From Escherichia coli (GTDB lineage: Bacteria; Pseudomonadota; Gammaproteobacteria; Enterobacterales; Enterobacteriaceae): DNA of 64,000 bases. Numbering within the stretch: position 1 is the first letter of the stretch; every line of letters begins with the position of its first letter. Where the stretch lies: the NCBI RefSeq assembly GCF_046105845.1, contig NZ_CP151004.1; one strand, 5' to 3'. Positions 36,803 to 64,000 of the stretch are shown here, one piece after another. The notes beneath the pieces were generated by a model, which searched no databases, was not told the DNA's origin, and was given only the letters and a program-made list of their open reading frames with translations. The position numbers were made by a program, and so were the translations under genes.

Positions 36803-36947
36803 CGCTGTTCCCTTTTTCTGATTTTTACTAAAAACAGTTTATCCTTCGCAGGAATAAGGGGGAACTCTCTTTCAGTAATCAGGTATAATTTGTTTAATCA
36901 AGCAGCAATTTTGCTGATTATGGACGGTACAACAGGAGGTTTTTCCG

Positions 36948-38320: not shown

Positions 38321-38480
<160 letters not shown>

Positions 38481-38504
38481 GCTATATTAACTGGCATTGG
38501 CAAA

Positions 38505-42125: not shown

Positions 42126-42210
42126 TATTCCAATCCTCAATATAAATAAGAGCAAGGAAGCTTGCCGGGTTTCACCTCTTCATTAATTTGTACATTATTT
42201 AAGGTTAACA

Positions 42211-42833: not shown

Positions 42834-42836
42834 TTT

Positions 42837-43244: not shown

Positions 43245-44416
43245 CGTTCGCGCAACGCCTCCTGTGCTTTATTAAAGGGTTTCAACAGATAATCCAGCAC
43301 GCTTTTTTTGCCGGTGCGGATATCGACCGTCGCCACCATGCCGGGAAATATCGGAAACTGCTGTTTACTTTTGTTTTCCAGATGGTTGCTGAAAGTGCGA
43401 ATGTACACCCGATAGTAATAAACATCGCGCCGCACTTCATCCTGCACGGTGTCTGGTGATATCACCGCCACTTCTCCCGGCAGGCCGCCGTAGATGGAGT
43501 AATCGTAGGCGGTTATTTTCACCAGCGATTTTTGCCCCGGATGGATAAACGCCACATCGCGCGGGGAGATTTTTGCCTCGATCAGCAGTTGCTCATCCAG
43601 CGGCACGATGGTCATCAGTTTACCACCGGGGGCAATGACCCCGCCAACCGTGGTGACGTCAATGTCCTGAACAATGCCTCGCACCGGCGCGGTAAAGTTG
43701 AGCCTGGTGAGGGAGTCTTCCCGTCCACGGATCACCGAACGCTGGGTTTCCACTTCCGCATTGGCTTTCGCTAACTCTTCGCGCGCCTGAACGTAATATT
43801 GCGTGCGCACGTCGCTAAGTTTGTTTTCCAGTTCATTGGCCTGGCGTTGCAGGCGCAGCACTTCAACGCTGCTCGCCGCCCCCTGTTTTACCAGCGGCTG
43901 GGTCATCGCCAGTTCGCGGTTGACCAGGCTAATCCCCTGCGTCAGCCCGGTGGTGGCTTTGTTCAGCCCATCGCGGCGAGTGTTGTACAACGCCGTTTCC
44001 GACTCGATAAGTTCGGGGAATTTATTCAGTTCGTCAGGGAAGACCAGCGGTTTATTGCTCACTTCCGCCCGCAGCCGCGCCGAGGTTGCCAGCGCCGCGT
44101 ACAGCCGCGACATTGCTTCCTGGACGTCGGATTCCGTTTTGGTGCGGTTAAGCTGCGCCAGCGGCTGGCCCTGTTCAACAATATCGCCAACCTTGACGTC
44201 GAGATGATACAGAATTCCGCCTTCCAGCGACTGCACCACCTGTTCGCGCCCGGAGGGTTCTACCGTGCCGCTGCCGGTGGTGACTTCATCAAGCTGGAAG
44301 TACCACGCCCAGCCGAGAAAACAGAGCAGCATCACAGCGGTAACGCGTACCGCCAGCGCCGAACGCGGCAAGCGGGGTTCAGTCAGGCCACGGTTGTATT
44401 GCAGTTGTCCGTTCAT
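43241..44416 (-). CDS. Type I secretion periplasmic adaptor (HlyD family membrane fusion protein)
   Basis: 391-aa ORF with N-terminal TM anchor, long coiled-coil region and C-terminal beta domain typical of HlyD/LapC; its stop overlaps the cueR start (ATGA). Confidence 0.88.
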
Positions 44417-46578: not shown

Positions 46579-49500
46579 CTACACCACCATCAACTGATGA
46601 TTCGCCAGCAAAGTGGCGAGGTCGGTGTGCACGCCCGTCAGCGTGACCACGTTAGTTGTCGCAAAAGTGCCGCCCGTGCCGTCGCGGTCGATCTGTACGA
46701 TGGTGTCGCTGCCGCTCTGGGTGACTTTGACAAAATCACCGATGTTTCCGGCCTGCGCATCCAGCGTTGCCACGCCGTTGACGTAGCTGGCTTTACCGTT
46801 GCCGGTGTAGCCGCTGCCCTGTAACAACTCGCGGATATCAATGCGATCGGTGTCGGCGGTGCCTTCCCATGTCCCTACCGTAAAGCCATTCACCACGTCT
46901 GAGCCGTTGCCGCCGGTCGCGTCGCTGGCGTTGAGCAGTTTATAGAGCAAGGTGTCGTGGCCGCCGTTGCCGATGTTGAGCGTGTCGTTACCGCCGCGCC
47001 CTTCCAGTTGGTTATCGCCGCTGCTGCCGGTCAGAGTGTCGTTAAAATTCGAGCCGGATATCCCTTCGATATTGGTAAATGTCGAGGTGTTAAAGCCGGT
47101 GGCCTGCGCGGCGGTGCTGCTTAAGTTCGCGGTCACGCCCACCGTCGAGAGGCGGAAATCAACCACGTCCATCCCGCCATTCGCCAGCCACGTTCCGGTG
47201 CCGGAGCTGTACACCCAACCGCCGGAGCCGTCGTAAGTGTCGGTGCCTGCGGTGGCAAAGAAGGTGTCGTTATAGCCGGTGCCGACGAACTTGCCATTGT
47301 TGCTCGCGGTGCCTGCTTCGGCGCTGAGGTCGTAAGCGTGGGTGGCATCGGTGGCCTGTAAGCCGCCCCAGCTGGTGTTGACCGTCTGGTCGATATTGCT
47401 GGCGGTGGTGCCGGTGGATTTGATCAGCACCGCGTTGTAGGTTTCTCCGGCATTCAGCCCGTAGAAGTTGACCAGCGCCGAGGTGTCGTTAACCCCCATA
47501 CCCGACTGCGGGTTGATGATTTGCGTGGCGACCAGCACTCCCGCCGAGTTGTACAGTTTTACGGTATTGCCGTAATAGACGTTAATGCCGTTAGGATCGG
47601 TGATGCGCAGGTGCAGCGAAGTGCCGTAGCTCACCGTGTTGGTGTTGCGAATAAGATAGACGCTGCCCGACTGTTTGGTCACCAGCACATCCACCGCGCC
47701 GTCCCAGTCGTAGTCCATTGCCGCCACGCCGCTGGTGGTACCGCTCTGGCTACCGCCGAGGGCCGATTGTGTCCAGTTGCTGGCATTGCTGACGTTGGTA
47801 TAAAGATACGACTGCCCGGTCTGGGCGATACGGGCGATATCCATCAGGCCGTCATGGTTCCAGTCCACCGCCAGGCTAAACTGGCTGGCGTAGGTGGTTG
47901 CCGTTGCGCCCACCGCCACCGGGCTACCCAGTACACCGTTGGTGTTGAATAACAGCGAGCCGTAGTTAGCTCTTCCCTGGCTGGCGGGCAGGAAGAGATC
48001 CATATCGCCGTCGCCATCGAAATCGGCCCAGGTCATGGAAACGCTGCTGCTCATAGCGCCACTACCCGCCCCGCTCAGGAAGGTATTGGTGGTGTTCTGC
48101 CCCCAGACAAACGTCCCATTCCCCTGGTTGATGAGCGAAGACAGTGTGTAATAGTTATTCAGGTTATAGGTGTGCTGAACCAGGTCGATCCTGCCGTCAT
48201 TATTCAGATCGACGCCAGAACCTTCGTTGAGCGAAAGATACCCCGTCACCGCCCCGCCCACCGTGGCGCTACCGCCGCTGTTCGACGTGGTGGAGGTGCC
48301 TACCAGCGTGCCTGCGTTGTTCCACAAGAAGGTGTTAGAGTCCGGCCCGCCCGCGTCGCCAATCCAGAAGTCGAGATAGCCGTCGCCCTCTTTATCAAAT
48401 GCCACAATCGAGCCGTACCACGTCAGGGTGCCGACGGTGACCTGAATAGCGCTGGAAAAGGTGCCGTCGCCGTTATTGGTAAAGCCGTTGATATAGCCTG
48501 TACCGTAGTCATCACGGGTGATAAACAGATCGCCCGTGCCGTTACGGTCGTAATCGGCGATGGAGCTGGTGGCGTAGTTGTTGCCGCTCTGATACAGCGT
48601 CAGCGCGGTCTTCGACCAGGTGAGTGGGTCAGTCGATTGCATTACCTGCTGGTTTGCCAGCACCGTCCACATCCCGTGCGAGTCGAGGCCGTAGGTCAAT
48701 CCCCAGGCGGTGGTTTTGCTGACGGTGGTCCAGGTCGGTGTGTAATCAATCGCCGCATTAACCGTCACCGTGCCGTTGCTAATATTGGCGTTATTGCCGT
48801 TACCCGCCGAACTTTTTACCTGCGCAGTAACGGTATAGGCGGTCGCGGAAACTGTCAGCGCATCGGTATCCGGCAACTGTACATACCAGGTGTTGTGCGC
48901 CGGATCGACCACTACCGCGCCGCCCGGTTCAGAGGTGTAGGTTTTGCCGTTGATCACCACTTCAACATACTGCCCACTGGCGAGTGCCGCCGTGATTACC
49001 CCGCTGATAATCGGCGTGGTATCGCGCGTGGTCTGGCTGGTAATTTGCGCCAGCGTGGTCGGAATAGAGGTATCGACCGTCAGGACAAAATCACTGGAGG
49101 CGGTGATATTCCCCGCCAGATCCACCACTCGCGCACTGTAGGTGTAGGCACCGCTCACCAGCCCGCTGTCGCTGTAGGTCCAGTTCAGTGCGCCTACCAT
49201 CGTTACCGCGCCTAACAGCAGGCCGTTACGGTAGAGGTAAACCACTTCACCGCTGGCAAGCGGGCCGGAGAGCACGCCGTTCAGCAACGGCGTAGTGTCG
49301 TCGGTGGCCTGCGAACTGCTTAATGTCCCCTGCCGCTGCCCGACGTCATCAGTGTACGACACAATGGTCGGCGTCGCGGTGGGGTTAATCGTATCGACCA
49401 CCACCGTTTTCGACACCACCGGACCGGTGTTCCCCGCCAGATCCAGCACCCGCACCTGATAAACATAGCTGCCGTCGGTCAGCGTGCGGCTGTCAGTGTA

Positions 49501-52500
49501 GGTCCACTGCGTGCCGTTGGTGGTGAGCGTGATCCAGGTCGCGCCACCATCGAGGCTAATCTGCGCCACTTCGCCACTGGCAAGCCCCGCCCCCAGTGAA
49601 CCCGTCAGCGTGAGCGTGGTATCGCTGGTGATAAAGTCAGTTGCCGAACTCCCCGTGTCGGTGCTGATACTGGCGATGGTGAGTACCTGCGCCGGGTTAA
49701 CGGTATCGATCAGCGCCGACTGGCTGCCGGTTGCGCCAACGTTGCCCGCAAGATCGACTACCCGCACCTGCCAGGTGGTGGTGCCGTTGGTGAGCGTGCG
49801 CCCGTCAACGTAACTCCAGTTAAGGCCGTCTGCGGCGACGGTCACGTTCACCCAGGTTGCGCCGTTGTCGGTACTGATTTGCGCGAACTCATTAGCGCCG
49901 AGCGCCGCGCCCAGCACGCCGCGCACGGTAAGCGAGGTGTCGCTGGTAATAAAATCGCTACTGCTGGCTCCGGTGTCATCGCTGATACCGGTAATGGTGA
50001 TACTTTTCGCCGCTTCCGGGCTGGTGGTGTCGACCACCACATTTTGCGTTGCGGTCTGCCCGACATTCCCCGCCAGATCCACCACCCGCACCGTGTAGTT
50101 CCAGGTGCCGTCGGTCAGTGTGCGACCATCGGCATAGCTCCAGCTGGTGCCGATAACGGTTAAGGTGGTCCAGGTAACACCGCCGTCGAGGCTGATTTGC
50201 GCCCGTTCATCGGCGGCAAGCGCCGCGCCGAGCGTGCCGCGCACGGTCAGCGTGGTGTCGCGGGTGACAAAATCGCTGCTGCTTAACCCGGTGTCATCGC
50301 TGATGCCCGCAATGGCGATGGTTTTGCTCGCCAGCGGCGCGGTGGTGTCCACAGTGACTATCTGGCTGGCGGTCGCGCCGATATTTCCGGCGGTGTCGAT
50401 CACCCGCACCTGATAGTTGTAGTTGCCGTCGCTCAGCGTGCGCCCGTCAAGATATGTCCAGGTTAAGCCGCTTACCGAAAGATTCTGCCAGGTGGTGCCG
50501 CCGTCGATGCTGATTTGCGCGAACTCACCGGCAGAAAGCGCCGCGCCCAGCGTGCCGCTTACCGCAAGCGTCGTGTCGCTGGTGACAAAATCGTTAGTGA
50601 TCAGGCCCGTATCGGTAGTGATCGCGCTGATGGCGATGGTTTTCACCGCGGGATCTGGCGCGATGGTGTCGATCACCACATTCTGGCTGTCGGTGGCACC
50701 GACGTTGCCCGCAGCGTCAATCACCCGCACCTGATAGAGATAGTTGCCATCGGTCAGCGTGCGGCTGTCGTTATAACGCCAGGTCGTGCCGGTAACGGTG
50801 AGCGTGGTCCAGGTTACGCCGCCGTCGATACTGATTTGTGCCGTCTCGTTACTGGCAAGCGCGGCGGTGAGCGAGCCGTTGACCACCACCGGACTGACGC
50901 TGGTGATAAAGTCGCTGGCGCTAAGCCCAGTGTCGGCTTGCAGGGAATCGATATTAATACCCATCGCCGGGACGCTGAGATCGACAGTAATGGTGTGATT
51001 GCTGCTGCCGGTGTTGCCAATGGCGTTGCTCACCGAGGCATTAATCACATAGGCATTGCCGTCCGTCAGCGCGGTGACATCGGCGCTGCCGAGGGTGTAG
51101 CTCCAGCTACCGCCGGTCTGTACCGTGGTGGTGTAGGTTTTGCCGTTTAAGGTCAGGGTCAGCGTCTGCCCGACGGGTGCGGTGGTGGTGCCGCTGATCA
51201 CCAGCGACGAGCCGTGTTCCGCCGCGTTCACCACATCATCGCCCGCAAAGGTGTTGATGGTGACGGTAGGCACATCGCCGTTCAACGTCACGCCACGGCT
51301 GGCGCTGCCGGGGTTTCCGGCCTGATCGGCGACCGACGCGCTGATGGTGTAGCTGCCGTCGCTTAATCCGGCAAACTGCTGCGCCGGAATAAACACCGAC
51401 CAGCTTCCGCCGCTGCCGACCGTTGCAGTCCAGCTCTGACCGTTAAAGGTGACGGTCACCGTCTGGCCCACTTCAGCGGTGGTGGTGCCGCTGATGGTTT
51501 GCCCAGCGAGCTGTTCGGCGTTGTTGATAATATCGTCACCCGCCACCGTGGCGATGGTGACCGTGGGCGCAACGGTATCGACGGTCAGGGCGTGCGTGGT
51601 TTGACCGGGGTTACCGGCGCGATCGTTCACGCTGGCGGTAATGGTCTGCGCGCCCTGCCCGAGTGCGGCCAGATCCGCCGCAGGCACGTTAAGCGCCCAG
51701 GTGCCATTGGCGGCCACCGTGGCAGTGTAAGTTTTGCCGCCAAAGGTGACAGTGACCGTCTGCCCCACTTCCGCGCTGGTCGAGCCGTTAAGGGTTAACG
51801 GCTGCTGTTGTTCGGCGGCGTTGAGTCGGTCGTCCGTTGAAACCGTGTTTATGCTGATAATCGGCGCGGTGAGATCCACCGCAACACTGCGCGAGGCCGT
51901 GGCGCTGTTTCCGGCGCTGTCCTGGGCGGAGGCGCTAACCGTGTAGCTGGTGCCATCCGCCAGTGCCGCGACGTCTGCCGCCGGCACGTTCACGCTCCAG
52001 CTCCCGTTGCTCTGAATGGTGGCGCTGTAGCCTTTGCCGTTAAGCAACACGGTCACTACTGTACCTGCGGCAAAGTTCGTTCCGGTGCCGATCAGGGTCA
52101 GCGCACTGCCCGCTTCGGCGGCGTTAATAATATTATCGCCGCTGATGGTGCTGACCGAGAGCGACACTGCCGCCGTGTTCACCTGCACGTTGTGCGTCTG
52201 CGTGCTGCTGTTGCCTGCGCTATCGGTGATAGTGGCGCTGATGGTCACCGTGCCGTCTGCAAGGCCGGAAATCACGCTGGCAGGCACGCCGACGCTCCAG
52301 TTGCCGCTGGCATCGGTGCTGGTGACATACTGCTGCCCGGCGATGGTCACCACCAGGCGGTCGCCCGCCACTGCGCCCGTGGCGGTGCCGCTGATAATCT
52401 GCGCCTGAGTGTGTTCGACGTTGTTAATCACATCATCGCCCGCCACGGTGTTAAAACTGATCACCGGCGCAGTGGTATCGACGGTCACGCCTTTGCTGGC

Positions 52501-55500
52501 GCTGCCAGGGTTACCCGCCAAATCGCTGACCGTGGCGGTCAGGGTGTAGCCGTTATTGGCAAGTGCGGTTAAGTCGCTGGCGGGCAGCGTTAAACTCCAG
52601 CTGCCGTCTGCCTGCACCGTGGTCTGGTAGTTAGTGCCGTTAAGCGTGACGGTCAGCGTCTGCCCCGTCTCCGCCGTGCTGGTGCCGGATACCGTCACGC
52701 CCGCCGCCGCTTCGCTGGCATTGATGATGTTATCGCTGGCAATGGTGTTGATGGTCACCGTTGGCGCGGCGCTATCGACGCTGTATTCATGCGTTGCCGT
52801 GGCGCTGTTGCCGTTGACGTTAGTCACCCGCACCTGGGCGCTGGCATCGCCGTCACGCAGGGCCGCCATATCCGCCGCCGGAACGGTGGTGCTCCAGCTA
52901 CCGTTTGCCGCCACCGTGGTGGTGTAGGTTTTACCGCCAAAAGTAATGGTAACGGTTTGCCCCGCTTCGACGCCGGACGTGCTGCCGGAGAGCGTTAGCG
53001 CCGCGCCTTTTTCGGCGGCGTTAATCACATCATCGCTGGTAATGCTGTTCATGCTGATGGCGACGGTAGTGAGATCAACAGTCAGCGGATGGGTAATGCT
53101 GGTTTGCGTTCCGGCACTGTTCGCGCCGCTAACGGTAATGTTCAGCGTTCCCGCAGGCCAGTTGCTGACATCCGCCGCCGGAACGCCGACGCTCCAGCTG
53201 CCGTTTGCCAGCACCGTGGCGGCGTAAGTTTGGTTATTAATCACCACCGTCAACGCCGTACCTGCGGCAAAACCGGAACTGCTGCCAGTAATCACCTGCG
53301 CCTGGGCGTGTTCGATAATATTCACCACATCATCGCCCGCGACGGTATCCACCCGCAGGCCGGGTAGACTGGCATCGATGGTGATATCGCGCGTGCCGCT
53401 ACCGGTGTTGCCAACGGCGTTGGTCACCAAGGCATTAACCGTTAACTCACCGTTACCCAGCGCCTGCCAGTCGGCGGCAGGTACGCTCACATTCCAACTT
53501 AAATCAGCCTGGACCGTGGCGGTGTAAGTTTTACCGCCCAGTTCAACGGTGACGGTGCTGCCCGCCGCCGCACCGGTTACCTGGCCGCTGATGGTTTGCG
53601 CACTGCCTGCTTCAGCGGCGTTGATAATATCGTCCGTCGCCACCGGATTAATGGTGACGCCCGGTAGCGCGGTATTGACCTGCACGTTATGGCTGGCGGT
53701 GCTGCTGTTACCCTGAGCATTTGTGACGCTCGCCGTCACGCTGTAGGTGGCTTCGCCCAGCGCACTGACCGCCGAGGCGGGCACGGTTACGCTCCAGTTG
53801 CCGGAGGCGTCGGTAGTGGCGCTGTAGTTTTGTCCGTTCAGCGTAACGGTGATCGCCGTACCCGCAGGCTGATCGCTGGTGCCGGAAAGCGTCAGATCAG
53901 ATCCTTTTTCCGTCGCGTTGATCACATCATCGCCCGCGATGGTGTTGATGCTAATCACTGGCGCGCTGAGGCTGACGGTCACGGTGCGGCTGGCGTCATC
54001 GCTGTTACCCGCCCGATCGCTGACGCTGGCGGTGATGGTCTGTGCGCCGCTACCCAGTGCCGTAACATCCGCCGCTGGAACGCCAACGCTCCAGTTGCCG
54101 GAGGCATCCAGGGTGGTGGTGTAGGTTTTGCCGTTGAGCACAACGCTCACCACATCGCCCGCTTCCCCGCCCGTGCTGGTGCCGGAGATCACCAGCGCCT
54201 GCGCATGTTCGGCATCGTTGATAATGTCATCGCCCGCCACAGTGTTAATGGTGAGAACCGGCGCGGTGGTGTCTACCGCCAGATTATGGCTGGCGCTGCC
54301 GGGGTTGCCCGCTTTGTCGTTGACCGTGGCGCTGACGGTGTAATTGCTTGCGCTCAGCGCGCCTAAGGCTGAAGGGGGAACGCTGACGCTCCAGCTACCG
54401 TCTGCCTGCACATTACCGCTGTAGGTTGCGCCGTTAAGGGTGACGGTGACCGTCTGCCCGGTTTCGGCGGTGCTGGTGCCGCTGATGGTGAGCGGGCTTC
54501 CCGCCTCCGTGGCGTTAAGAATATCGTCGCTGGCAATGGTGTTAATGGTGAGCGTCGGCGCGCTGGCGTCAACGCTGTACGCATGGGTCGCCGAGGCGCT
54601 GTTACCGCTCGCGCTGCTAACGCTGGCCTGCACGTTCGCCGCGCCGTCTGGCAGAGTTGCCAGATCTGCCGCCGGAACGTTCACACTCCAGCTTCCGTTG
54701 GCGGCGACGCTTGCGGTGTAGGTTTTACCGCCAAAGATGACGGTAACGGTTTGCCCGCTTTCAATCCCGCTGGTGCTGCCGGAAAGGGTCAGACCAGTGC
54801 CTTTTTCGGCGGCGTTAATTACGTCGTCGCTGGCAACGGTGTTGATGCTGATTGCCACCGCCGTTAAATCGACGGTGAACGGATGGCTGACGCTGACCGG
54901 ATTTCCGGCGCTGCTCTGGCCTGCCACGTCAACGGTTAACGCCCCCGCAGGCCATGCGCTGACGTTTGTCGCCGGAATGCCGACGCTCCAGCTCCCGTCT
55001 GCCTGTACCGTGGCGGAATAAGCCGTGCCGTTAATCGTGATCGTCAATGGCACGCCTGCATTCAGGCCGCTACTGCCGCCAGTGATCACCAGCGCCTGCC
55101 CGTGTTCAATGCTGTTGACGATATCATCGCCCGCTACCGTATCCACGCGCAGCCCTGGCAGGTTAGCGTCAATGGTGATATCCCGCGTACCGCTGCCCGT
55201 ATTGCCATTCGCGTTGGTGACCGAAGCGTTAATGGTCAAATCGCCATTGCCCAACGCCTGGAGATCGGCTGCCGGAACGCTGATACTCCAGCTTAAGTTG
55301 CCCTGTACCGTGGTGGTGTAAGTGTTGCCGCCCAGCGTGACGGTAACCGTATCGCCAGCGGCGGCACGAGTGACCACCCCGCTGATGGTTTGATCGGCCC
55401 CGGCTTCGGCGGCGTTGATAATATCATCGCCCGCCACGGTGTTGATGGTAACGCCCGGCAGGCCGCTATCGATCAGTAAATTCGCCTGGCTGCTGGCGGT

Positions 55501-58500
55501 GTTACCCGCCGCACTGGTGGCACTGGCGCTGACGGTATAGTTGGCCTGACCTAGAGCCGCCAGATCGCTCACCGGCACGGTTAAGGTCCAGTTGCCCGCC
55601 GCGTCGGTGGTGGCGCTGTAGTTATGACCGTTGAGCGTGACGGTGACCTGCGCGCCCGTCGCCAGCCCCGTACTGCTACCGCTAATGGTCAACGGCTGGC
55701 CTTTTTCATCGGCGTTCAGGACGTTATCGCCGCTGATGGCGTTAAAGGTAATTGACGGCAGGCCAGTATTGACCGTCACCTGATGCGTGGCGCTGCCGCT
55801 GTTTCCGGCGGCATCGGTGACGCTGGCGTTAATGGTCACCGTGCCGTTCGCCAGCGCCGAGACGACGCTTGCCGGAACGCCGACGCTCCAGTTACCGCTG
55901 GCATCCAGCACGGTGGTGAAGGTATTTGTGCCGATAGTCACCGTCACGGTGCTACCGGTTGCCGCACCCGTGGCGGAGCCGCTGATAATCTGCGCCTGGG
56001 CGTGTTCCGTCGCGTTGATCACATCATCGCCTGCCACCGTGTTGATGGTGACGACCGGAACGGAAGTATCCACCGTCAGGTTGTGATTAACCGAGGCCGG
56101 GTTTCCGGCTTTGTCGCTCACCGCCGCATTCACGGTGTAGTTGCTGGCGGTCAGGGCGCTTAAGTCGGCTGGCGGTACGCTGACGCTCCAGCTACCGTCC
56201 GTTTGAACCGTGCCAGTATAGTTTTCGCCATTGAGGGTGACGGTCACTGTCTGCCCCGCTTCCGCCGTGCTGCTGCCAGTGATAGTCAGCGCAGCACCCG
56301 CTTCGGCGGCGTTAAGAATGTCGTCGCCCGCAATGGTGTTAATGGTCACCGTTGGCGCGGTAGCATCGACGCTGTAAGCGTGGGTAGTGGTGGCGCTGTT
56401 GCCGTTAACATTGCTGACGTTGGCCTGCGCGCTGGCATCGCCATCACGCAGGGCCGCCATATCTGCCGCCGGAACCGAGGTGCTCCAGGAACCATTCGCC
56501 GCGACGCTTGCAGTGTAGGTTTTGCCGCCAAAGGTGACGGTGACCGTTTGCCCGGCCTCCACACCAGAAGTGCTGCCAGAGAGCGTTAACGCCGCGCCTT
56601 TTTCGGCAGCGTTAATCACGTCATCGGCAGTAATGGCGTTGATGCTGACCGCCACCGCAGTGAGATCGACAGTCACCGGATGCGTAACGCTGACCGGATT
56701 TCCGGCTGTGGTGCTACCGCTCGCCGTAATCGTGACCGTCCCCGCAGGCCAGGCGCTGACATCTGCCGCCGGAACGCCGACGCTCCATGAGCCATCCGCC
56801 AGTACCGCCGCAACATAGGTTTGCCCGTTAATGGTCAGCGTGACGTTACTGCCCGTCGCCAGACCGGAACTGCTGCCGGTAATCATCAGCGCCTGTCCGT
56901 GCTCGATAATATTGACCACATCATCGCCAGCGACAGTATCGACCCGCAGACCGGGCAGATTCGCGTCGATGGTGATTTCACGCGTGCCGTTACCGGTATT
57001 ACCTACGCTGTTCGTTACCGAAGCCGAAATGGTCAGCTCGCCGTTGCCCAGCGCCTGTAAAGCGGCTGCCGGAACATTAATACTCCAGCTTAAATTCGCC
57101 TGCACCGTGGCAGTGTAAGTCGCCCCGCCGAGCGTGACGGTTACCGTGTCGCCCGCTGCCGCGCCCGTCACTTGCCCGCTGATGCTCTGGCCCGCGCCCG
57201 CTTCGGCAGCGTTAATAATATCGTCGCTCGCGACAACGTTAATGGTGACGCCCGGCAGCGCGGTATTAACCTGCACGTTATGGCTGGCGGAACCGCTGTT
57301 GCCATCAGAGTCAGTAGCGGCGGCGGTCACCGTGTAAGTGGCTTCACCGAGGGCGCTCACCCGTGACGCCGGAACGGTCACGCTCCAGTTACCGGATGCA
57401 TCGGCAGTGGTGGTGTAATTTTGCCCGTTGAGCGTAACGGTTATCTGCGTGCCCGCAGGCTGGTCGCTGGTGCCGGAAATCGCCAGATCCGCGCCTTTCT
57501 CCGTGGCGTTGATGATGTCATCGACGGCAATGGTGTTAATGCTAAGTACCGGAGCGCCGAGCGCCACGCTGACACTGTGCGAGGCCGTGCCGCTGTTGCC
57601 TGCGGAGTCGGTGACCGTGGCGGTAATGGTCACATCCCCCTGCGCCAGTGCGGAAATCACGCTGGCAGGCACACCGATGCTCCAGTTGCCGTTGGCGTCC
57701 AGCACGGTGGTATAGGTAGTCGTGCCAATGGTCACGGAAACCGTGTTACCGGTCGTCGCGCCCGTTGCCGAGCCGCTGATAATCTGCGCCTGAGCATGTT
57801 CCGTGGCGTTGATGATGTCATCGCCCGCCACCGTGTTAATGGTGACAACCGGAGCGGCAAGGTCCACCGTCAGATTATGTGTTGCTGAAGCCGGATTTCC
57901 GGCTTTGTCGCTGACCGCCGCGCTCACCGTATAGGGACTGACAGTGAGGTTGGCTAAATCGCCAGTTGGTACGCTGACGCTCCAGTTCCCGTCTGCCTGC
58001 ACGTTGCCGCTGTAATTGACGCCGTTTAGCGTCACAGTCACCGTCTGCCCGGCTTCCGCCGTGGTGGTGCCGCTGATGGTCAGCGCCGATCCCGCTTCGG
58101 CGGCGTTAAGAATATCGTCGCTGGCGATGGTGTTGATGGTAACGGATGGCGCGGTGGCATCGACGCTGTAAGCATGCGTTGCCTGGGCGCTGTTACCTGC
58201 GACGTTGCTGACGCTGGCCTGGACGTTTGCTGCGCCGTCAGGCAAGGTTGCGAGATCGGCGACTGGGATCGTTAGCCCCCAGGTGCCGCCCGCGGCAACC
58301 GTGGTGGTGTAGCTTTTACCACCGAAGATAACGGTGATGGTCTGCCCCGCTTCCACGCCGGAGGTGGTGCCGGAAAGCTGCAAATCGCTGCCTTTTTCGG
58401 CGGCATTAATTACATCGTCAGTGGAAAGGGTGTTGATGGTGATCGCCACAGTAGCGAGATCGACCGTGACCGGATGAGTAATGCTGGTTGTGGTTCCGGC

Positions 58501-61500
58501 AGTATTCGTGCCAGAGACGGCAATATTGACCGTCCCCGCAGGCCAGTTTGTGACGTCTGTCGCCGGAACGCCGACGCTCCAGGTGCCATCGGCGAGTACC
58601 GTTGCGCCATAGGCGACGCCGTTGATAACTACCGTCAACGCCGCCCCCGCCGCCAGTCCGGTACTGCTACCGGTGACCACCAGTGCCTGAACGTGCTCAA
58701 TGCTGTTAATCACATCATCGCCTGCCACGGTATCGACGCGCAGACCAGGTAGGTTGGCGTCTATTACGATGTCGTGCGTTGCGGTGCCAGTATTATTTGC
58801 GGAATTGGTCACCGAGGCGCTGATGGTCAGTTCACCGTTGCCCAGCGCCTGCAAAACGTTCGCAGGTACGCTGACGCTCCAGCTTAAATCTGACTGCACG
58901 GTGGCGGTGTATTGATTGCCGCCAATGATGACAATAACCGTATTCCCCGCAATCGCCGTCCCCGTGACCTGACCGCTGATGGTCTGCGCCACAGCGATTT
59001 CAGCCGCGTTGATAATGTCATCGCCCGCCACGGTATTAATGATTACCCCTGGCAGGAGCGATTCGACATTCACCGTATGGGTGGTGCTGCCGCTGTTGCC
59101 CGCGCTGTCGGTGGCGCTGGCGCTAATCTGATACACCGCCTCGCCCAGTGCGCCGACCGCCGAAGCAGGCACGGTAACGCTCCAGTTACCGGAACCGTCG
59201 GTGGTGGCACTGTACGCCAGGCCGTTCAACATCACGGTGACCGTGGTGCCGATCGCCAGACCGCTGGAGCCGCCGCTGATGGTCAGATCCTGAGTTTTCT
59301 CGGTATTGTTAATAATGTCATCGCCAGAGACAGTATTGATGGTCAGCGTTGGGCCGCTGAGATCAACGGTCACATCGTGAGTCGTGCTGTCGCTGTTGCC
59401 CGCGCGATCGCTCAGGCTGGCGGTGATGGTCTGGCTACCGGTTGCCAGCGCCGTGACATCCGCCGCCGGAATACCGACGCTCCAGTTACCGGAGGCATCC
59501 AGCGTGGTGGTGTAGTTTTTGCCGTTGAGCGAGACGGTCACCACATCGCCTGCCGCCGCGCCCGTGCTGGTGCCGCTCACCACCAGCGCCTGCCCGTGTT
59601 CGATAGCGTTGATGATGTCATCGCCCGCGACGGTGTTAATGGTGAGATCCGGCGCGGTAACGTCCACCGCCAGCGCGTGGTCGGCGCTTGCCGGGTTACC
59701 CGCTTTGTCGCTTACCGTGGCGGTCACGGTATAGCTGCTGGCGATTAATCCGCTTAAATCCGTTGCCGGAACGTTCACGCTCCAGGTGCCATTCGCCTGA
59801 ACGGTGGTCTGGTAAGTGTTGTTATTGAGCGTGACGGTCAGCGTCTGCCCGGCCTGCGCCGTGGTGGTGCCGCTGATGGTGATCCCCGCGCCCGCTTCGC
59901 TCACGTTGAGAATATCGTCACTGGCGATGGTGTTGATGGTCACAAGCGGCGCAGTGGCATCGACGCTGTACGCGCGATCGGCCTGGGCGTTATTGCCGTT
60001 AATGTTGCTGACGTTCGCCTGCACGTTGCCCGCGCCATCCGGCAGCGCAGCGAGATCGGCAGGCGGTACGTTCACCGTCCAGCTACCGTTGGCTTCCACA
60101 GTAGTGGTGTAATTTTTGCCACCAAAGGTGACGGTCACCGTCTGCCCGGCTTCCACGCCGCTGGTGCTGCCGCTTACGACCAGCGTTTCGCCTTTCTCCA
60201 CGGCGTTGATCACATCATCGCCGGACAGGGTGTTAATGGTGATGGCGACCGCCGTCAGATCGACAGTGACCGGATGGGTAATGGTGGAGGTTGTTCCGGC
60301 GCTGTTGGTGCCGCTTACCGTAATATCCACCGTACCCGCAGGCCAGTTGCTGACGTCTGCCGCCGGAATACCGAGGCTCCACGTGCCGTCGGCTAACACC
60401 GTCGCGGCGTAAGTGACGTTGTTGATCACAACCGTTAACGCGGTTCCTGCCGTCAGTCCGCTGCTGCTCCCGGTGATCACCAGCGCCTGATTGTGCTCAA
60501 TGCTGTTAATAACATCATCGCCCGCCACGGTATCGACCCGCAGTCCAGGCAGATTGGCGTCGATCGTGATATCGCGCGAGCCGCTGCCCGTGTTGCCAAC
60601 GCCATTGGTGACCGAGGTGTTAACTGTCAGGTTGCCGTTACCCAGCGCCTGAATATCCGCCGCCGGAACGCTGACACTCCAGCTTAAATTGGCCTGCACT
60701 GTGGCGGTGTAGGTGTTGCCGCCCAGCGTAACGGTAACCGTATCCCCCTGCGCTGCGCCCGTCACCTGCCCGCTGATAGTCTGGGCATTTCCCGACTCGG
60801 CATCGTTAATAATATCGTCGGTCGCCACCGCGTTAATAGTGACGGCAGGCAGCGCGCTGTTGACCAGCACGTTATGGCTGGCGGAATTGCTGTTGCCTGC
60901 GCTATCGGTGACGTTCGCGGTTACCGTGTAGTTGGCTTCCCCCAGCGCGCTAACCGCCGAGGCTGGCACCGTGGCGCTCCAGTTGCCGTTGCTATCGGTC
61001 GTCGCGGTGTAATTTTGCCCGTTCAACGTCACCGTAATGGTGGTGCCCGCAGGCTGATTACTGGTGCCGGTAATTTGCAGATCCGCGCCTTTTTCCGTGG
61101 CGTTAATCACGTCATCGCTGGCGATAGTGTTGATGCCAATGGTTGGCGCGGTCAGATTCACGGTGACCGTGCGGCTGGCATCATCGCTGTTGCCTGCCGC
61201 GTCGGTAATGGTAGCTGTGATGGTTTGCGGGCCGCTGCCCAGCGCGGTGACATCTGACAGCGGAACGCCGACGCTCCAGTTGCCGGAAGCATCCAGCGTG
61301 GTGGTGTAGGTTTTACTGTTTAGCGTGACGGTGATGACATCACCCGCTTCGCCGCCAGTGCTGGAACCGGAGATCACCAGCGCCTGTCCGTGTTCGGCGG
61401 CGTTAATAATGTCATCGCCGGAGATGGTGTTGATGGTCAGCACCGGCACGGTGAGATCCACCGCCAGCCCGTGAGTGGTGGTCGCAGGGTTACCCGCTTT

Positions 61501-64000
61501 ATCGCTTACCGAGGCGCTGACCGTGTACTGACTGGCGGTCAGATTGCTGAGATCCGCCGTCGGCACGCTGACGCTCCAGCTCCCGTCCGCCAGGACGGTG
61601 CCGGTGTAAGTCACGCCATTAAGCGTGACAGTTACCGTCTGCCCCGCTTCGGCGGTGCTACTGCCGCTGATGGTTAGCGGATTGCCCGCCTCGGCGGCGT
61701 TCAGAATATCGTCGGTGGCGATGGTGTTAATGGCAAGCGTCGGTGCCGTGGCGTCGACGCTGTAGGCGTGCGTTGCCGAAGCCGTGTTGCCGTTAATAGT
61801 GCTGACGCTGGCCTGTACCGTGGCGTCGCCGTCGCGTAACGCGCTGAGATTGGCGGCAGGTACGGTGGTTGTCCAGCTACCATCGCCCGCTACGGTAGCG
61901 GTGTAGGTTTTCCCGCCAAAGGTAACGGTGACCGTTTGCCCCACTTCCACGCCGGAGGTGCTGCCTGAAAGGGTTAAATCTGCACTTTTTTCAGCGGCAT
62001 TAATCACATCGTCGCCGGAAACGGTGTTAATGGAGATCGCCACAGCTGCCAGATCGACGGTGACTGGATGGGTGATGGTGACCGGGTTTCCTGCGCTAGT
62101 AGCACCTGAAACCGTGATATTCACCGTACCCGCAGGCCAGTTGCCCACATCTGCCGCCGGAACACCAACGCTCCATGTGCCATCGGCTAATACTGTCGCA
62201 GCGTAAGTGACCGTGTTAATCACCACCGTCAGCGCCGCGCCCGCCGCCAGCCCGCTGCTGCTACCAGTTATCACCAGTGCCTGACTGTGCTCGATGCTGT
62301 TGACCACATCATCGCCCGCCACGGTATCGACGCGCAGGCCAGGCAAATTAGCGTCGATAGTAATATCTCGCGAACCGCTGCCGGTATTACCAACGCCGTT
62401 GGTCACCGAGGCATTAACTGTCAGGTCGCCATTGCCGATGGCCTGAATATCCGCCGCCGGAACGCCCACGCTCCAGCTTAAATTGCCCTGCACGGTAGTG
62501 GTGTAGGTTTTCCCGCCAAGCGTTACGGTAACCGTATCGCCCGCCGCCGCGCCCGTCACCTGCCCGCTGATGGTCTGCGCCACGCCCGATTCGGCGGCGT
62601 TAATAATGTCGTCGCTCGCCACCGGATTAAGGGTGACGCCAGGCAGTGCGGTATTCACCTGCACGTTATGGCTGGCGGAATTACTGTTACCCGCGCTGTC
62701 GGTGACATTCGCCGTCACCGTATAACTGGCTTCGCCCAGCGCACTGACGGCGGAGGCTGGCACCGTGGTGCTCCAGTTGCCTGCGGCGTCCGTCGTGGCA
62801 GTGTAATTTTGCCCGTTCAGCGTCAGCGTAATTGTGGTGCCAGCTGGCTGATTACTGGTGCCGGAAATTTGCAGATCCGCGCCTTTTTCGATGGCGTTAA
62901 TCACGTCATCGGTGGCGATGGTGTTAATGCCAATGGTCGGCGCGGTCAGATTCACTGTAACCGTGCGGCTGGCATCATCGCTATTGCCTGCCGCGTCGGT
63001 AATGCTGGCGGTGACAGTTTGCGGGCCGCTGCCCAGCGCCGTGACATCCGCCGCCGGAACGCCGACGCTCCAGTTGCCGGAGGCATCCAGCGTCGTGGTG
63101 TAGGTTTTACTGTTTAGCGTGACGGTGACGACATCCCCCGCTTCTCCGCCAGTGCTGGAACCGGAAATCACCAGCGCCTGCCCGTGTTCGGCGGCGTTAA
63201 TAATATCGTCGCCCGCAATGGTGTTGATGGTGAGTACCGGAACGGTGAGATCCACCGCCAGATTATGCGTGGTGCTCGCCGGGTTGCCTGCTTTGTCATT
63301 GACCGTGGCGGTCAGGGTGTGGCTGCCATCGGTCAATGCCTCAAGATCTGCCGCCGGAATATTAATACTCCAGCTACCGTCGGCCTGTACCGTTGCCTGA
63401 TACGTCTGCACGGTCGGGCTATTGAGCGTTATCGTAACAATCTGCCCTGCCTCGGCAGTGGTGCTGCCGCTCACCGTCACACCCGCATCGGCTTCGCTGG
63501 CGTTGACGATATTGTCGCTGGCAACGGTATTGATAATGATGGTCGGGACACTGCTGTCGACGCTGTAGTTATGCACCGCCGAGGCGCTATTGCCGTTAAT
63601 ATTGCTGACGCTGGCCTGCGCGGAGGCGCTGCCCTCTGGTAATGCTGCCAGATCGGCGGCGGGAACGGTGGCAGCCCAGCTACCATCGCTCGCCACGCTG
63701 GCAGTGTAATTTTTCCCGCCAAAGGTGACGGTGACGGTTTGACCGGATTCTACGTTAGTGGTGGTGCCGGAAAGGGTTAAATCAGCGCCTTTTTCTGTGG
63801 CGTTAATCACATCATCCGTGGCGATGGTGTTGATGGTGATCGCCGCCGGAGTGAGATCGACCATAACCGGATGCGTAATGCTCACCGGATTTTCGGCGCT
63901 ACTTTCCCCGGACACGGTAACCGTTACTGTTCCCGCAGGCCAGGCGCTAACCTGCGCCGCCGTGACGCCCACGCTCCAGCTACCATCGGCCTGCACCGCA
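46579..64000 (-). CDS. Giant RTX-type non-fimbrial adhesin, T1SS substrate; partial (N-terminus beyond window end)
   Basis: Open minus-strand frame from the window edge to TAG at 46579..46581 (at least 5805 aa in window); the leading M in the ORF track is an edge artefact. Dozens of ~100-aa Ig-like domains, a second repeat class, FG-GAP/VCBS-like motifs, RTX nonapeptides and a C-terminal secretion region; stop is 3 bp from the ABC transporter start. Confidence 0.9.
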   Translation of the reverse strand, partial: AVQADGSWSVGVTAAQVSAWPAGTVTVTVSGESSAENPVSITHPVMVDLTPAAITINTIATDDVINATEKGADLTLSGTTTNVESGQTVTVTFGGKNYTASVASDGSWAATVPAADLAALPEGSASAQASVSNINGNSASAVHNYSVDSSVPTIIINTVASDNIVNASEADAGVTVSGSTTAEAGQIVTITLNSPTVQTYQATVQADGSWSINIPAADLEALTDGSHTLTATVNDKAGNPASTTHNLAVDLTVPVLTINTIAGDDIINAAEHGQALVISGSSTGGEAGDVVTVTLNSKTYTTTLDASGNWSVGVPAADVTALGSGPQTVTASITDAAGNSDDASRTVTVNLTAPTIGINTIATDDVINAIEKGADLQISGTSNQPAGTTITLTLNGQNYTATTDAAGNWSTTVPASAVSALGEASYTVTANVTDSAGNSNSASHNVQVNTALPGVTLNPVASDDIINAAESGVAQTISGQVTGAAAGDTVTVTLGGKTYTTTVQGNLSWSVGVPAADIQAIGNGDLTVNASVTNGVGNTGSGSRDITIDANLPGLRVDTVAGDDVVNSIEHSQALVITGSSSGLAAGAALTVVINTVTYAATVLADGTWSVGVPAADVGNWPAGTVNITVSGATSAGNPVTITHPVTVDLAAVAISINTVSGDDVINAAEKSADLTLSGSTSGVEVGQTVTVTFGGKTYTATVAGDGSWTTTVPAANLSALRDGDATVQASVSTINGNTASATHAYSVDATAPTLAINTIATDDILNAAEAGNPLTISGSSTAEAGQTVTVTLNGVTYTGTVLADGSWSVSVPTADLSNLTASQYTVSASVSDKAGNPATTTHGLAVDLTVPVLTINTISGDDIINAAEHGQALVISGSSTGGEAGDVITVTLNSKTYTTTLDASGNWSVGVPLSDVTALGSGPQTITATITDAAGNSDDASRTVTVNLTAPTIGINTIASDDVINATEKGADLQITGTSNQPAGTTITVTLNGQNYTATTDSNGNWSATVPASAVSALGEANYTVTANVTDSAGNSNSASHNVLVNSALPAVTINAVATDDIINDAESGNAQTISGQVTGAAQGDTVTVTLGGNTYTATVQANLSWSVSVPAADIQALGNGNLTVNTSVTNGVGNTGSGSRDITIDANLPGLRVDTVAGDDVINSIEHNQALVITGSSSGLTAGTALTVVINNVTYAATVLADGTWSLGIPAADVSNWPAGTVDITVSGTNSAGTTSTITHPVTVDLTAVAITINTLSGDDVINAVEKGETLVVSGSTSGVEAGQTVTVTFGGKNYTTTVEANGSWTVNVPPADLAALPDGAGNVQANVSNINGNNAQADRAYSVDATAPLVTINTIASDDILNVSEAGAGITISGTTTAQAGQTLTVTLNNNTYQTTVQANGTWSVNVPATDLSGLIASSYTVTATVSDKAGNPASADHALAVDVTAPDLTINTVAGDDIINAIEHGQALVVSGTSTGAAAGDVVTVSLNGKNYTTTLDASGNWSVGIPAADVTALATGSQTITASLSDRAGNSDSTTHDVTVDLSGPTLTINTVSGDDIINNTEKTQDLTISGGSSGLAIGTTVTVMLNGLAYSATTDGSGNWSVTVPASAVGALGEAVYQISASATDSAGNSGSTTHTVNVESLLPGVIINTVAGDDIINAAEIAVAQTISGQVTGTAIAGNTVIVIIGGNQYTATVQSDLSWSVSVPANVLQALGNGELTISASVTNSANNTGTATHDIVIDANLPGLRVDTVAGDDVINSIEHVQALVVTGSSTGLAAGAALTVVINGVAYGATVLADGTWSVGVPATDVTNWPAGTVNIAVSGTNTAGTTTSITHPVTVDLATVAITINTLSTDDVINAAEKGSDLQLSGTTSGVEAGQTITVIFGGKSYTTTVAAGGTWGLTIPVADLATLPDGAANVQASVSNVAGNSAQATHAYSVDATAPSVTINTIASDDILNAAEAGSALTISGTTTAEAGQTVTVTLNGVNYSGNVQADGNWSVSVPTGDLANLTVSPYTVSAAVSDKAGNPASATHNLTVDLAAPVVTINTVAGDDIINATEHAQAQIISGSATGATTGNTVSVTIGTTTYTTVLDANGNWSIGVPASVISALAQGDVTITATVTDSAGNSGTASHSVSVALGAPVLSINTIAVDDIINATEKGADLAISGTSDQPAGTQITVTLNGQNYTTTADASGNWSVTVPASRVSALGEATYTVTAAATDSDGNSGSASHNVQVNTALPGVTINVVASDDIINAAEAGAGQSISGQVTGAAAGDTVTVTLGGATYTATVQANLSWSINVPAAALQALGNGELTISASVTNSVGNTGNGTREITIDANLPGLRVDTVAGDDVVNIIEHGQALMITGSSSGLATGSNVTLTINGQTYVAAVLADGSWSVGVPAADVSAWPAGTVTITASGSTTAGNPVSVTHPVTVDLTAVAVSINAITADDVINAAEKGAALTLSGSTSGVEAGQTVTVTFGGKTYTASVAANGSWSTSVPAADMAALRDGDASAQANVSNVNGNSATTTHAYSVDATAPTVTINTIAGDDILNAAEAGAALTITGSSTAEAGQTVTVTLNGENYTGTVQTDGSWSVSVPPADLSALTASNYTVNAAVSDKAGNPASVNHNLTVDTSVPVVTINTVAGDDVINATEHAQAQIISGSATGAATGSTVTVTIGTNTFTTVLDASGNWSVGVPASVVSALANGTVTINASVTDAAGNSGSATHQVTVNTGLPSITFNAISGDNVLNADEKGQPLTISGSSTGLATGAQVTVTLNGHNYSATTDAAGNWTLTVPVSDLAALGQANYTVSASATSAAGNTASSQANLLIDSGLPGVTINTVAGDDIINAAEAGADQTISGVVTRAAAGDTVTVTLGGNTYTTTVQGNLSWSISVPAADLQALGNGDLTINASVTNANGNTGSGTRDITIDANLPGLRVDTVAGDDIVNSIEHGQALVITGGSSGLNAGVPLTITINGTAYSATVQADGSWSVGIPATNVSAWPAGALTVDVAGQSSAGNPVSVSHPFTVDLTAVAISINTVASDDVINAAEKGTGLTLSGSTSGIESGQTVTVIFGGKTYTASVAANGSWSVNVPAADLATLPDGAANVQASVSSASGNSASATHAYSVDASAPTLTINTIASDDILNATEAGSPLTISGTSTAETGQTVTVTLNGATYSGNVQADGSWSVSVPPSALGALSASNYTVSATVNDKAGNPGSASHNLAVDTTAPVLTINTVAGDDIINDAEHAQALVISGTSTGGEAGDVVSVVLNGKTYTTTLDASGNWSVGVPAADVTALGSGAQTITASVSDRAGNSDDASRTVTVSLSAPVISINTIAGDDVINATEKGSDLTLSGTSDQPAGTAITVTLNGQNYSATTDASGNWSVTVPASAVSALGEATYSVTASVTNAQGNSSTASHNVQVNTALPGVTINPVATDDIINAAEAGSAQTISGQVTGAAAGSTVTVELGGKTYTATVQADLSWNVSVPAADWQALGNGELTVNALVTNAVGNTGSGTRDITIDASLPGLRVDTVAGDDVVNIIEHAQAQVITGSSSGFAAGTALTVVINNQTYAATVLANGSWSVGVPAADVSNWPAGTLNITVSGANSAGTQTSITHPLTVDLTTVAISMNSITSDDVINAAEKGAALTLSGSTSGVEAGQTVTITFGGKTYTTTVAANGSWSTTVPAADMAALRDGDASAQVRVTNVNGNSATATHEYSVDSAAPTVTINTIASDNIINASEAAAGVTVSGTSTAETGQTLTVTLNGTNYQTTVQADGSWSLTLPASDLTALANNGYTLTATVSDLAGNPGSASKGVTVDTTAPVISFNTVAGDDVINNVEHTQAQIISGTATGAVAGDRLVVTIAGQQYVTSTDASGNWSVGVPASVISGLADGTVTISATITDSAGNSSTQTHNVQVNTAAVSLSVSTISGDNIINAAEAGSALTLIGTGTNFAAGTVVTVLLNGKGYSATIQSNGSWSVNVPAADVAALADGTSYTVSASAQDSAGNSATASRSVAVDLTAPIISINTVSTDDRLNAAEQQQPLTLNGSTSAEVGQTVTVTFGGKTYTATVAANGTWALNVPAADLAALGQGAQTITASVNDRAGNPGQTTHALTVDTVAPTVTIATVAGDDIINNAEQLAGQTISGTTTAEVGQTVTVTFNGQSWTATVGSGGSWSVFIPAQQFAGLSDGSYTISASVADQAGNPGSASRGVTLNGDVPTVTINTFAGDDVVNAAEHGSSLVISGTTTAPVGQTLTLTLNGKTYTTTVQTGGSWSYTLGSADVTALTDGNAYVINASVSNAIGNTGSSNHTITVDLSVPAMGINIDSLQADTGLSASDFITSVSPVVVNGSLTAALASNETAQISIDGGVTWTTLTVTGTTWRYNDSRTLTDGNYLYQVRVIDAAGNVGATDSQNVVIDTIAPDPAVKTIAISAITTDTGLITNDFVTSDTTLAVSGTLGAALSAGEFAQISIDGGTTWQNLSVSGLTWTYLDGRTLSDGNYNYQVRVIDTAGNIGATASQIVTVDTTAPLASKTIAIAGISDDTGLSSSDFVTRDTTLTVRGTLGAALAADERAQISLDGGVTWTTLTVIGTSWSYADGRTLTDGTWNYTVRVVDLAGNVGQTATQNVVVDTTSPEAAKSITITGISDDTGASSSDFITSDTSLTVRGVLGAALGANEFAQISTDNGATWVNVTVAADGLNWSYVDGRTLTNGTTTWQVRVVDLAGNVGATGSQSALIDTVNPAQVLTIASISTDTGSSATDFITSDTTLTLTGSLGAGLASGEVAQISLDGGATWITLTTNGTQWTYTDSRTLTDGSYVYQVRVLDLAGNTGPVVSKTVVVDTINPTATPTIVSYTDDVGQRQGTLSSSQATDDTTPLLNGVLSGPLASGEVVYLYRNGLLLGAVTMVGALNWTYSDSGLVSGAYTYSARVVDLAGNITASSDFVLTVDTSIPTTLAQITSQTTRDTTPIISGVITAALASGQYVEVVINGKTYTSEPGGAVVVDPAHNTWYVQLPDTDALTVSATAYTVTAQVKSSAGNGNNANISNGTVTVNAAIDYTPTWTTVSKTTAWGLTYGLDSHGMWTVLANQQVMQSTDPLTWSKTALTLYQSGNNYATSSIADYDRNGTGDLFITRDDYGTGYINGFTNNGDGTFSSAIQVTVGTLTWYGSIVAFDKEGDGYLDFWIGDAGGPDSNTFLWNNAGTLVGTSTTSNSGGSATVGGAVTGYLSLNEGSGVDLNNDGRIDLVQHTYNLNNYYTLSSLINQGNGTFVWGQNTTNTFLSGAGSGAMSSSVSMTWADFDGDGDMDLFLPASQGRANYGSLLFNTNGVLGSPVAVGATATTYASQFSLAVDWNHDGLMDIARIAQTGQSYLYTNVSNASNWTQSALGGSQSGTTSGVAAMDYDWDGAVDVLVTKQSGSVYLIRNTNTVSYGTSLHLRITDPNGINVYYGNTVKLYNSAGVLVATQIINPQSGMGVNDTSALVNFYGLNAGETYNAVLIKSTGTTASNIDQTVNTSWGGLQATDATHAYDLSAEAGTASNNGKFVGTGYNDTFFATAGTDTYDGSGGWVYSSGTGTWLANGGMDVVDFRLSTVGVTANLSSTAAQATGFNTSTFTNIEGISGSNFNDTLTGSSGDNQLEGRGGNDTLNIGNGGHDTLLYKLLNASDATGGNGSDVVNGFTVGTWEGTADTDRIDIRELLQGSGYTGNGKASYVNGVATLDAQAGNIGDFVKVTQSGSDTIVQIDRDGTGGTFATTNVVTLTGVHTDLATLLANHQLMVV
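46582..47040 (-). other. RTX nonapeptide motifs and C-terminal type I secretion signal region of the adhesin
   Basis: LEGRGGNDTLNIGNGGHDTL (GGxGxD repeats) about 140 aa from the C-terminus, confirmed by reverse-complementing 46961..47020; the final ~60 aa lack Cys. Confidence 0.65.
47400..48750 (-). other. FG-GAP/VCBS-like calcium-binding repeat region of the adhesin (coordinates approximate)
   Basis: Motifs DYDRNGTGDLFI, DKEGDGYLDFWI, DLNNDGRIDLV, DFDGDGDMDLFL, DWNHDGLMDIA, DYDWDGAVDVLV. Confidence 0.5.
48750..50960 (-). repeat. Second class of ~105-aa repeats (about 7 copies) in the adhesin (coordinates approximate)
   Basis: Repeating units with motifs ...I(S/T)xDTGxSxxDF(I/V)TxDTxLT(V/L)xGxLGAxL...ISxDGGxTW...DGRTLTDG...VRV(I/V)DxAGN.... 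Confidence 0.6.
50960..64000 (-). repeat. Array of ~100-aa bacterial Ig-like domains arranged in ~6-domain (~1.8 kb) super-repeats (coordinates approximate)
   Basis: Motifs such as (I/V)NT(I/V)AxDD(I/V)(I/L)NAxE recur about every 99-100 aa; the block IDANLPGLRVDTVAGDD recurs at least 6 times at ~600-aa spacing; antisense ORFs recur with ~300-bp and 1794-bp periodicity (e.g. 61064 vs 62858). Confidence 0.8.

Follow-up and report, generated by a model that had tools for sequence, protein, structure and literature searches.

This work concerns a very large gene in a 64,000-nucleotide stretch of Escherichia coli DNA (contig NZ_CP151004.1 of assembly GCF_046105845.1), which is referred to as the window in the following. 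A single uninterrupted reading frame on the minus strand occupies positions 46579..63999 and comprises 5,806 codons plus the stop codon (46579-46581). The frame leaves the window at its right edge, past position 64000, and about 1,119 N-terminal codons are missing when it is compared with the allele of strain N-01. In syntenic loci, RefSeq names the gene siiEA and its product BapA-related adhesin SiiEA. Directly 3' of siiEA and still inside the window lie genes for a transporter of the ATP-binding cassette (ABC) class and a periplasmic adaptor. The features are given here from the N-terminal to the C-terminal end of the encoded protein, with residue numbers counted in the window frame, and are followed by the two secretion genes:

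63829..63996, minus strand: class-1 Ig-like domain of type F, C-terminal part only, residues 2-57, cut by the window edge (positions 45-100 of the repeat hidden Markov model, HMM)
52150..63828, minus strand: periodic array of 39 class-1 Ig-like domains of predicted calcium type, each of about 100 residues, residues 58-3950 (repeat HMM, Ca_tandemer, Ig_like_ice, Big_13, 4P99)
50953..52149, minus strand: four class-1 domains outside the six-domain period, residues 3951-4349 (best matches not at multiples of six; identity 0.53-0.63)
48754..50952, minus strand: seven class-2 Ig-like domains, residues 4350-5082 (Big_13, 2YN3, Tandem Repeats Finder, hhalign)
47635..48753, minus strand: FG-GAP beta-propeller, residues 5083-5455 (three Pfam FG-GAP_3 matches, matches to seven-bladed folds)
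47305..47634, minus strand: putative beta-sandwich behind the propeller, residues 5456-5565 approximately (model strands, CRTAC1 fold alignment)
46834..47304, minus strand: degenerate RTX nonapeptide beta-roll, residues 5566-5722 approximately (HemolysinCabind, CyaA RTX, Foldseek)
46582..46833, minus strand: C-terminal type I secretion target domain, residues 5723-5806 (TIGR03661)
44413..46575, minus strand: type I secretion ABC permease/ATPase of the LssB subfamily (TIGR03375, 837 bits, cut-off 693; RefSeq annotation of syntenic loci)
43241..44416, minus strand: HlyD-family periplasmic adaptor (TIGR01843, 328 bits, cut-off 209; coordinates of the open reading frame)

At 96.5% identity and without gaps, the window frame aligns with residues 1120-6925 of SiiEA from strain N-01, an intact protein of 6,925 residues. 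The N-terminus of this N-01 protein scores 510 bits against NF047714 (adhesin_SiiEA, cut-off 425) and also matches biofilm_BapA_N; membership in NF047714 is decided by the N-terminal 229 residues at 425 bits or more, a region that lies outside the window. In the syntenic loci annotated by RefSeq the system appears as an insertion between ybaT and cueR, in which siiEA is flanked by a TolC-family gene on its upstream side, at a position outside the window, and by the ABC transporter and adaptor genes on the other; ybaT, cueR, ybbJ and other core genes are the neighbours. We found the locus in 959 of 5,426 complete E. coli genomes, and it was chromosomal in every case. The siiEA gene of the window shares 92-96% DNA identity with the sampled alleles, and both the order of modules and the flanking secretion genes are the same. 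The frame combines a long run of Ig-like extender domains with a C-terminal secretion domain and adjoins its own ABC transporter and adaptor genes, the TolC-family gene lying beyond the window, as is characteristic of RTX adhesins. We put the probability that it represents the C-terminal 84% of SiiEA, the giant adhesin of E. coli that is encoded on O-island 28 (OI-28), at about 0.9. The SiiEA system and its role in adhesion are already known: a dedicated NCBIfam model exists and an experimental paper appeared in December 2025 (PMC12758282). A literature search for the name SiiEA itself returned only an annotation carried over from Salmonella SiiE.

An earlier note, drawn up from the letters of this DNA, had proposed at least 40 Ig-like domains of about 100 residues arranged in higher-order units of roughly six, with one sequence block recurring at least six times. 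All three proposals hold, and each module that the note lists was recovered by independent tools. An HMM built from the repeats delineates 43 complete class-1 domains (residues 58-4349) and the one that is cut by the window edge, and gives seven weaker matches after class 1, up to residue 5082. The domains match NCBIfam Ca_tandemer (45 stretches) and Ig_like_ice as well as Pfam Big_13, and are homologous to the solved, calcium-stiffened Ig-like tetra-tandemer of region II of the Marinomonas primoryensis ice-binding protein MpIBP (4P99, E = 1.8e-58) and to other extender repeats of RTX adhesins. The conserved motif DD..N..E has its first D, its N and its E in each of the 43 domains, without exception, and its second D in 39, which points to Ig-like extender domains of the calcium-binding type. 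When the 43 domains are aligned with each other, mean identity is 0.65-0.68 at lags of 6, 12, 18 and 24 domains and 0.44-0.47 at every other lag, and for each of domains 1-39 the best match is found at a multiple of six. The six-domain periodicity is genuine and goes far beyond what chance would give. There are five exact copies of the block IDANLPGLRVDTVAGDD and one variant copy, IDASLPGLRVDTVAGDD, with a single substitution, and the motif LPGLRVDT recurs six times at distances of 598-600 residues. The 39-domain array amounts to six and a half copies of a unit A-B-C-D-E-F of 598-601 residues (about 1,800 nucleotides). Typing with one HMM per position of the unit (A-F) yields the order F, six times ABCDEF, ABC and the four off-period domains (40-43), which type as B/a/B/B. 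By the same typing, the full-length SiiEA allele begins with five atypical domains and then CDEF.

The six complete units share 69-81% DNA identity among themselves, and the longest exact repeat within the 17.4-kb part of the gene that is visible measures 34 bp. Units 1 and 2 form a mosaic, their DNA identity being 80-91% in domains C-F and 70-74% in domains A and B. Tandem Repeats Finder does not report the class-1 array, since the copies have diverged too far and a period of 1.8 kb is beyond the limit of the tool. Protein fragments from Citrobacter freundii, Enterobacter hormaechei, E. vonholyi, Trabulsiella, Erwinia, Huaxiibacter and an insect symbiont show the cyclic order A-F as well, at margins of 20-70 bits; by the same typing, the more distant proteins of Serratia and Cronobacter do not. 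Given the low identity of the units, the shortness of the longest repeat and the A-F order in other genera, block duplication is old and not ongoing, and we soundly infer from these historical traces that the super-repeat arose by amplification of a six-domain block before, or at the time of, the divergence of the genera sharing that order. The proposal in the earlier note that the protein expanded by unequal recombination of multi-domain blocks stands as history. An earlier account of the super-repeat was not found in literature searched with adhesin terms, a limited collection that provides weak evidence.

The comparison of length and integrity covered seven complete E. coli genomes. In five of these siiEA measures 20,755-20,779 nucleotides, in O157:H7 20,160 and in O145 19,692. 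Exactly one domain of each class is missing from the O157 allele, the O145 allele carries a deletion of 362 residues, and steps of one super-repeat (about 1.8 kb) are absent among the seven, that is no whole unit has been gained or lost. The alignment with the N-01 protein is gapless over 5,806 residues although 3.5% of the amino acids differ between the two. Across E. coli the array hardly varies in length, and block duplication is no current source of length change. We propose that the units have by now diverged so far that recombination no longer alters the length of the array.

The integrity of the gene needs to be considered together with the possibility that siiEA is a pseudogene, or is not expressed, in the window strain and that the open frame is a remnant. 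Five of the seven sampled genomes carry a frameshift or a nonsense codon, and the alleles of enteroaggregative E. coli (EAEC) 042 and O157 have been published as frameshifted, the locus and its frameshifts having been recorded in the EAEC 042 genome paper (PMC2808357); besides, the N-terminus is not visible in the window. However, the visible part runs through 5,806 codons without a stop, two sampled strains possess a fully intact gene of 6,925 codons, and sequencing error may account for the single frameshifts in long-read assemblies. Comparison of the window allele with two intact ones gives a ratio of nonsynonymous to synonymous divergence (dN/dS) of 0.09 overall and of 0.02-0.11 per module, at a synonymous divergence (dS) of about 0.2 between alleles. 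SiiEA is under purifying selection, and a pseudogene or silent gene in the window strain is unlikely. In O157:H7 the gene is split where codon 1462 has changed from GAG to TAG; the window reads through at this place (GCC, 62971-62973) and retains the full-length array, and siiEA is apparently intact in the window strain.

Alleles of the locus have diverged more deeply than the surrounding DNA, dS in siiEA amounting to 0.17-0.21 versus 0.02-0.13 in the flanking core genes. The flanking 16 kb (30000-46000) are 99.3% identical to strain AST215, whereas siiEA is 96.4% identical to AST215 and 92-95% identical to other strains, and siiEA and the ABC transporter gene have a dS of 0.15-0.24, mostly two to three times the values of most flanking core genes. 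Old alleles, recombination and conversion between repeats are candidate causes of this divergence.

Behind the class-1 domains, the earlier note had expected about seven repeats of about 105 residues belonging to a different family. Seven domains are indeed present, five of them regular units of 106 residues with a DTG..SDF.T motif and two divergent. They match Pfam Big_13 (E = 1e-13 to 6e-6) and the domains BIg50-52 of Salmonella SiiE (2YN3, E = 1.3e-7); Tandem Repeats Finder reports only part of this array (period 318, 72% matches). Profile-profile comparison (hhalign) relates class 2 to class 1 with a probability of 96.7% at 20% identity, so that the claim of a separate family has to be given up. 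As judged from sequence profiles, class 2 is a second, SiiE-type subtype of the class-1 Ig fold and a remote homologue.

The C-terminal modules largely bear out what the note had read from motifs. Integrin-like calcium-binding motifs are represented by three Pfam FG-GAP_3 matches (E = 3e-9 to 3e-7) and by D.D.DG-type calcium loops at residues 5149, 5264, 5326, 5379 and 5429. The strand pattern of the structural model and its matches to seven-bladed folds indicate a propeller of seven blades, which is the probable, predicted ligand-binding head of the protein. A beta-sandwich probably follows, with strands at model residues 379-477 predicted at a local distance difference test score (pLDDT) above 90 and with a fold alignment to CRTAC1 that extends over 423 residues and is thus longer than the propeller alone. 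Pfam finds no UnbV_ASPIC match for this post-propeller segment, and the likeness to CRTAC1 is therefore one of fold comparison. Ahead of the secretion signal lies an RTX beta-roll, recognized by HemolysinCabind (PF00353, E = 2e-4, residues 5649-5683), by CyaA RTX blocks (E = 2e-3), by Foldseek matches of the model to PrtC and to CyaA blocks IV-V and by a ladder of short strands in the model. The GGxGxD nonapeptides of the earlier note are real as a block, yet the block is degenerate since it contains a single strict GGxGxD (GGNGSD, residue 5696). The C-terminal secretion signal is confirmed by TIGR03661 (T1SS_VCA0849, 33.5 bits at a cut-off of 17.6, residues 5701-5803).

A pore-forming RTX toxin would likewise offer RTX nonapeptides, HlyB/HlyD-type genes and a type I secretion signal, and the older literature has used the labels 'RTX family exoprotein' and 'RTX toxin'. 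About 88% of the visible protein, however, consists of tandem Ig-like domains, no pore-forming or acylation-region family from Pfam or NCBIfam is matched, the annotation of the syntenic loci contains no acyltransferase gene, and the ABC transporter belongs to the LssB type, which is associated with adhesins. We reject the toxin interpretation, which retains next to no probability, in favor of a giant adhesin.

The domain identities, their periodicity, the homologies, the synteny and the purifying selection are direct observations; a model for how SiiEA may work takes the order of secretion, stiffening by calcium, retention on the cell surface and the ligand-binding module by analogy from RTX adhesins whose structures are solved, for example MpIBP. 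The chain is devoid of cysteine in all 5,806 residues and strongly acidic (468 acidic versus 111 basic residues), and it would be exported in an unfolded state, C-terminus first, through a channel formed by ABC transporter, adaptor and TolC. Outside the cell, calcium would fold the RTX beta-roll and stiffen the linkers between the Ig-like domains. The outcome would be a rod of about 59 Ig-like domains in full-length SiiEA (52 of class 1 and seven of class 2), held on the cell by the BapA-type N-terminal domain that lies outside the window, with the FG-GAP propeller and the beta-sandwich serving as putative ligand-binding head near the far end. Genes for a LapG protease or a LapD receptor, as used in regulated retention of the LapA type, are not annotated in the syntenic locus or its local neighborhood.

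Several points weigh against a functional adhesin of this design in the window strain. The RTX block is weak by sequence, and we know of no ligand for the propeller. Three of the seven sampled genomes, those of AST215, ST2747 and GN02461, have one frameshift each and O157 and O145 have nonsense codons, which means that siiEA alleles are often broken, or mis-sequenced. The window does not reach the promoter, the TolC gene or the first 1,119 codons, so that intactness of the gene in this strain is not demonstrable from it. Finally, the published complementation made use of two-domain truncations only (PMC12758282).

Among known systems, MpIBP shares the general plan of extender, ligand-binding region, RTX block and type I secretion signal, and its region II (4P99, 4KDV) together with other RTX adhesins (5IRB, 6XI3) provides the homologues of class 1. 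Region II of MpIBP consists of about 120 identical repeats (PMC4083281), whereas SiiEA cycles through six diverged domain types with neighbors only about 45% identical, and its head is an FG-GAP propeller instead of an ice- or sugar-binding domain. Salmonella SiiE, encoded on pathogenicity island SPI-4, is likewise a giant type I secreted adhesin of bacterial Ig domains, but the likeness is limited to the seven class-2 domains (residues 4350-5082) that match BIg50-52 (2YN3). Despite the name, orthology with SiiE is rejected: the bulk of SiiEA is Ca_tandemer of the MpIBP/BapA type, the N-terminus is of the BapA type and the syntenic locus contains no siiAB-like genes. The FG-GAP propellers of CRTAC1/ASPIC proteins and integrin alpha chains, CRTAC1 being closest, are related at the level of the fold (12-16% identity); unlike these, the SiiEA propeller resides within a secreted bacterial adhesin. 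A 2026 preprint on RTX adhesins mentions neither E. coli SiiEA nor FG-GAP heads.

These relationships bear the possibility that SiiEA is mainly a BapA-like factor for biofilm formation or cell-to-cell aggregation on abiotic or microbial surfaces and not an adhesin for host epithelium. The N-terminus resembles the BapA prefix and RefSeq labels the protein BapA-related, the repeats nearest to class 1 are the extenders found in environmental RTX adhesins (MpIBP, Marinobacter, Lap), and the C-terminal propeller module is common to adhesins of Acinetobacter, Pseudomonas, Serratia and insect-gut Bartonella. On the other hand, the only experiments on the locus show that deletion of OI-28 or of any of its five genes lowers adherence to Caco-2 cells and colonization of mice, in which colonization of the colon is reduced, and that the effect depends on RstA and calcium (PMC12758282). 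The two roles are not mutually exclusive. A predominant function in biofilms or aggregation appears somewhat unlikely to us.

The earlier note had further linked the high guanine plus cytosine (GC) content of the gene to horizontal origin. Composition is indeed not uniform across the window, GC being 0.61 in siiEA and 0.533 in 33 backbone genes. By codon position the values for siiEA and backbone are 0.554 versus 0.607 (GC1), 0.542 versus 0.416 (GC2) and 0.732 versus 0.576 (GC3, standard deviation 0.055). About half of the excess stems from amino acid composition (GC2 +0.13), GC2 being high because the sequence is rich in Thr, Ala, Gly and Ser. At four-fold sites, GC3 is 0.798 in siiEA and 0.818 in the two secretion genes, versus 0.675 in the backbone (standard deviation 0.063, maximum 0.774). 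The atypical synonymous-site composition is real and extends over the whole locus, and a foreign origin fits with it.

Genomes without the locus allow the timing to be narrowed. In these, homology continues for about 95 bp upstream of the cueR start, a stretch which is the 3' end of the adaptor gene (window 43241-43339). In E. coli HS this stub (positions 1905-2004 of the extracted locus, L009) is annotated as a truncated pseudogene and is followed by two nucleotides and then by a point 28 bp downstream of ybaT. All sampled locus-negative genomes (HS, BL21 and others) stop at the same query position. The adaptor remnant means that absence of O-island 28 reflects loss, about 26 kb having been cleanly deleted at a single common junction, and not a missing insertion. 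In view of this scar, any horizontal acquisition predates the present pattern of presence and absence.

At the same end of the locus, the adaptor stop codon overlaps the start of cueR by 4 bp (ATGA, window 43241-43244). In locus-bearing strains the secretion operon thus ends right where cueR begins, and cueR may be transcribed together with it.

Other features of the window differ between strains as well. A gene for a YadA-like trimeric autotransporter (39216-42125, plus strand) encodes 969 residues, a length due to 4.9 tandem copies of a 369-bp unit with 98% identity (array at 39531-41352); the annotated protein of other strains has about 338-436 residues. Unlike the repeats of siiEA, which are old and diverged, this expansion is young and strain-specific. 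The gap between mnmH and ybbP (window 29178-29891) contains no RHS element in the window strain, AST215, N-01 and O145; an RHS core gene is present there in O157:H7, ST2747, GN02461 and EBJ003, and dinQ is annotated in the gap of AST215 and O145. Positions 1-2000 of the window have a low GC content of 0.424 versus about 0.5-0.57 in the rest of the backbone.

For the biology of E. coli these findings have several consequences. O157:H7 carries the same gene at the same chromosomal site as the window strain, split and with two domains fewer, and the two O157:H7 'RTX proteins' of the 2025 paper correspond to the two halves of a single gene, 6,925 codons long, which other lineages possess intact. 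Most E. coli are without the locus through a deletion that left a 95-bp adaptor stub, and loss from K-12-like strains is a better description of O-island 28 than gain by enterohaemorrhagic E. coli. It is doubtful, though conceivable, that the cycle of six domain types is a functional design and not a leftover of old block duplication. If it were, the cycle could give the rod a structural period, could keep neighboring domains dissimilar (about 45% identity) and prevent misfolding between them, and could keep the paralogous DNA dissimilar (69-81%) and prevent recombination; such a design would account for the order being kept across genera of the Enterobacterales and for an array length that is nearly fixed in E. 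coli.
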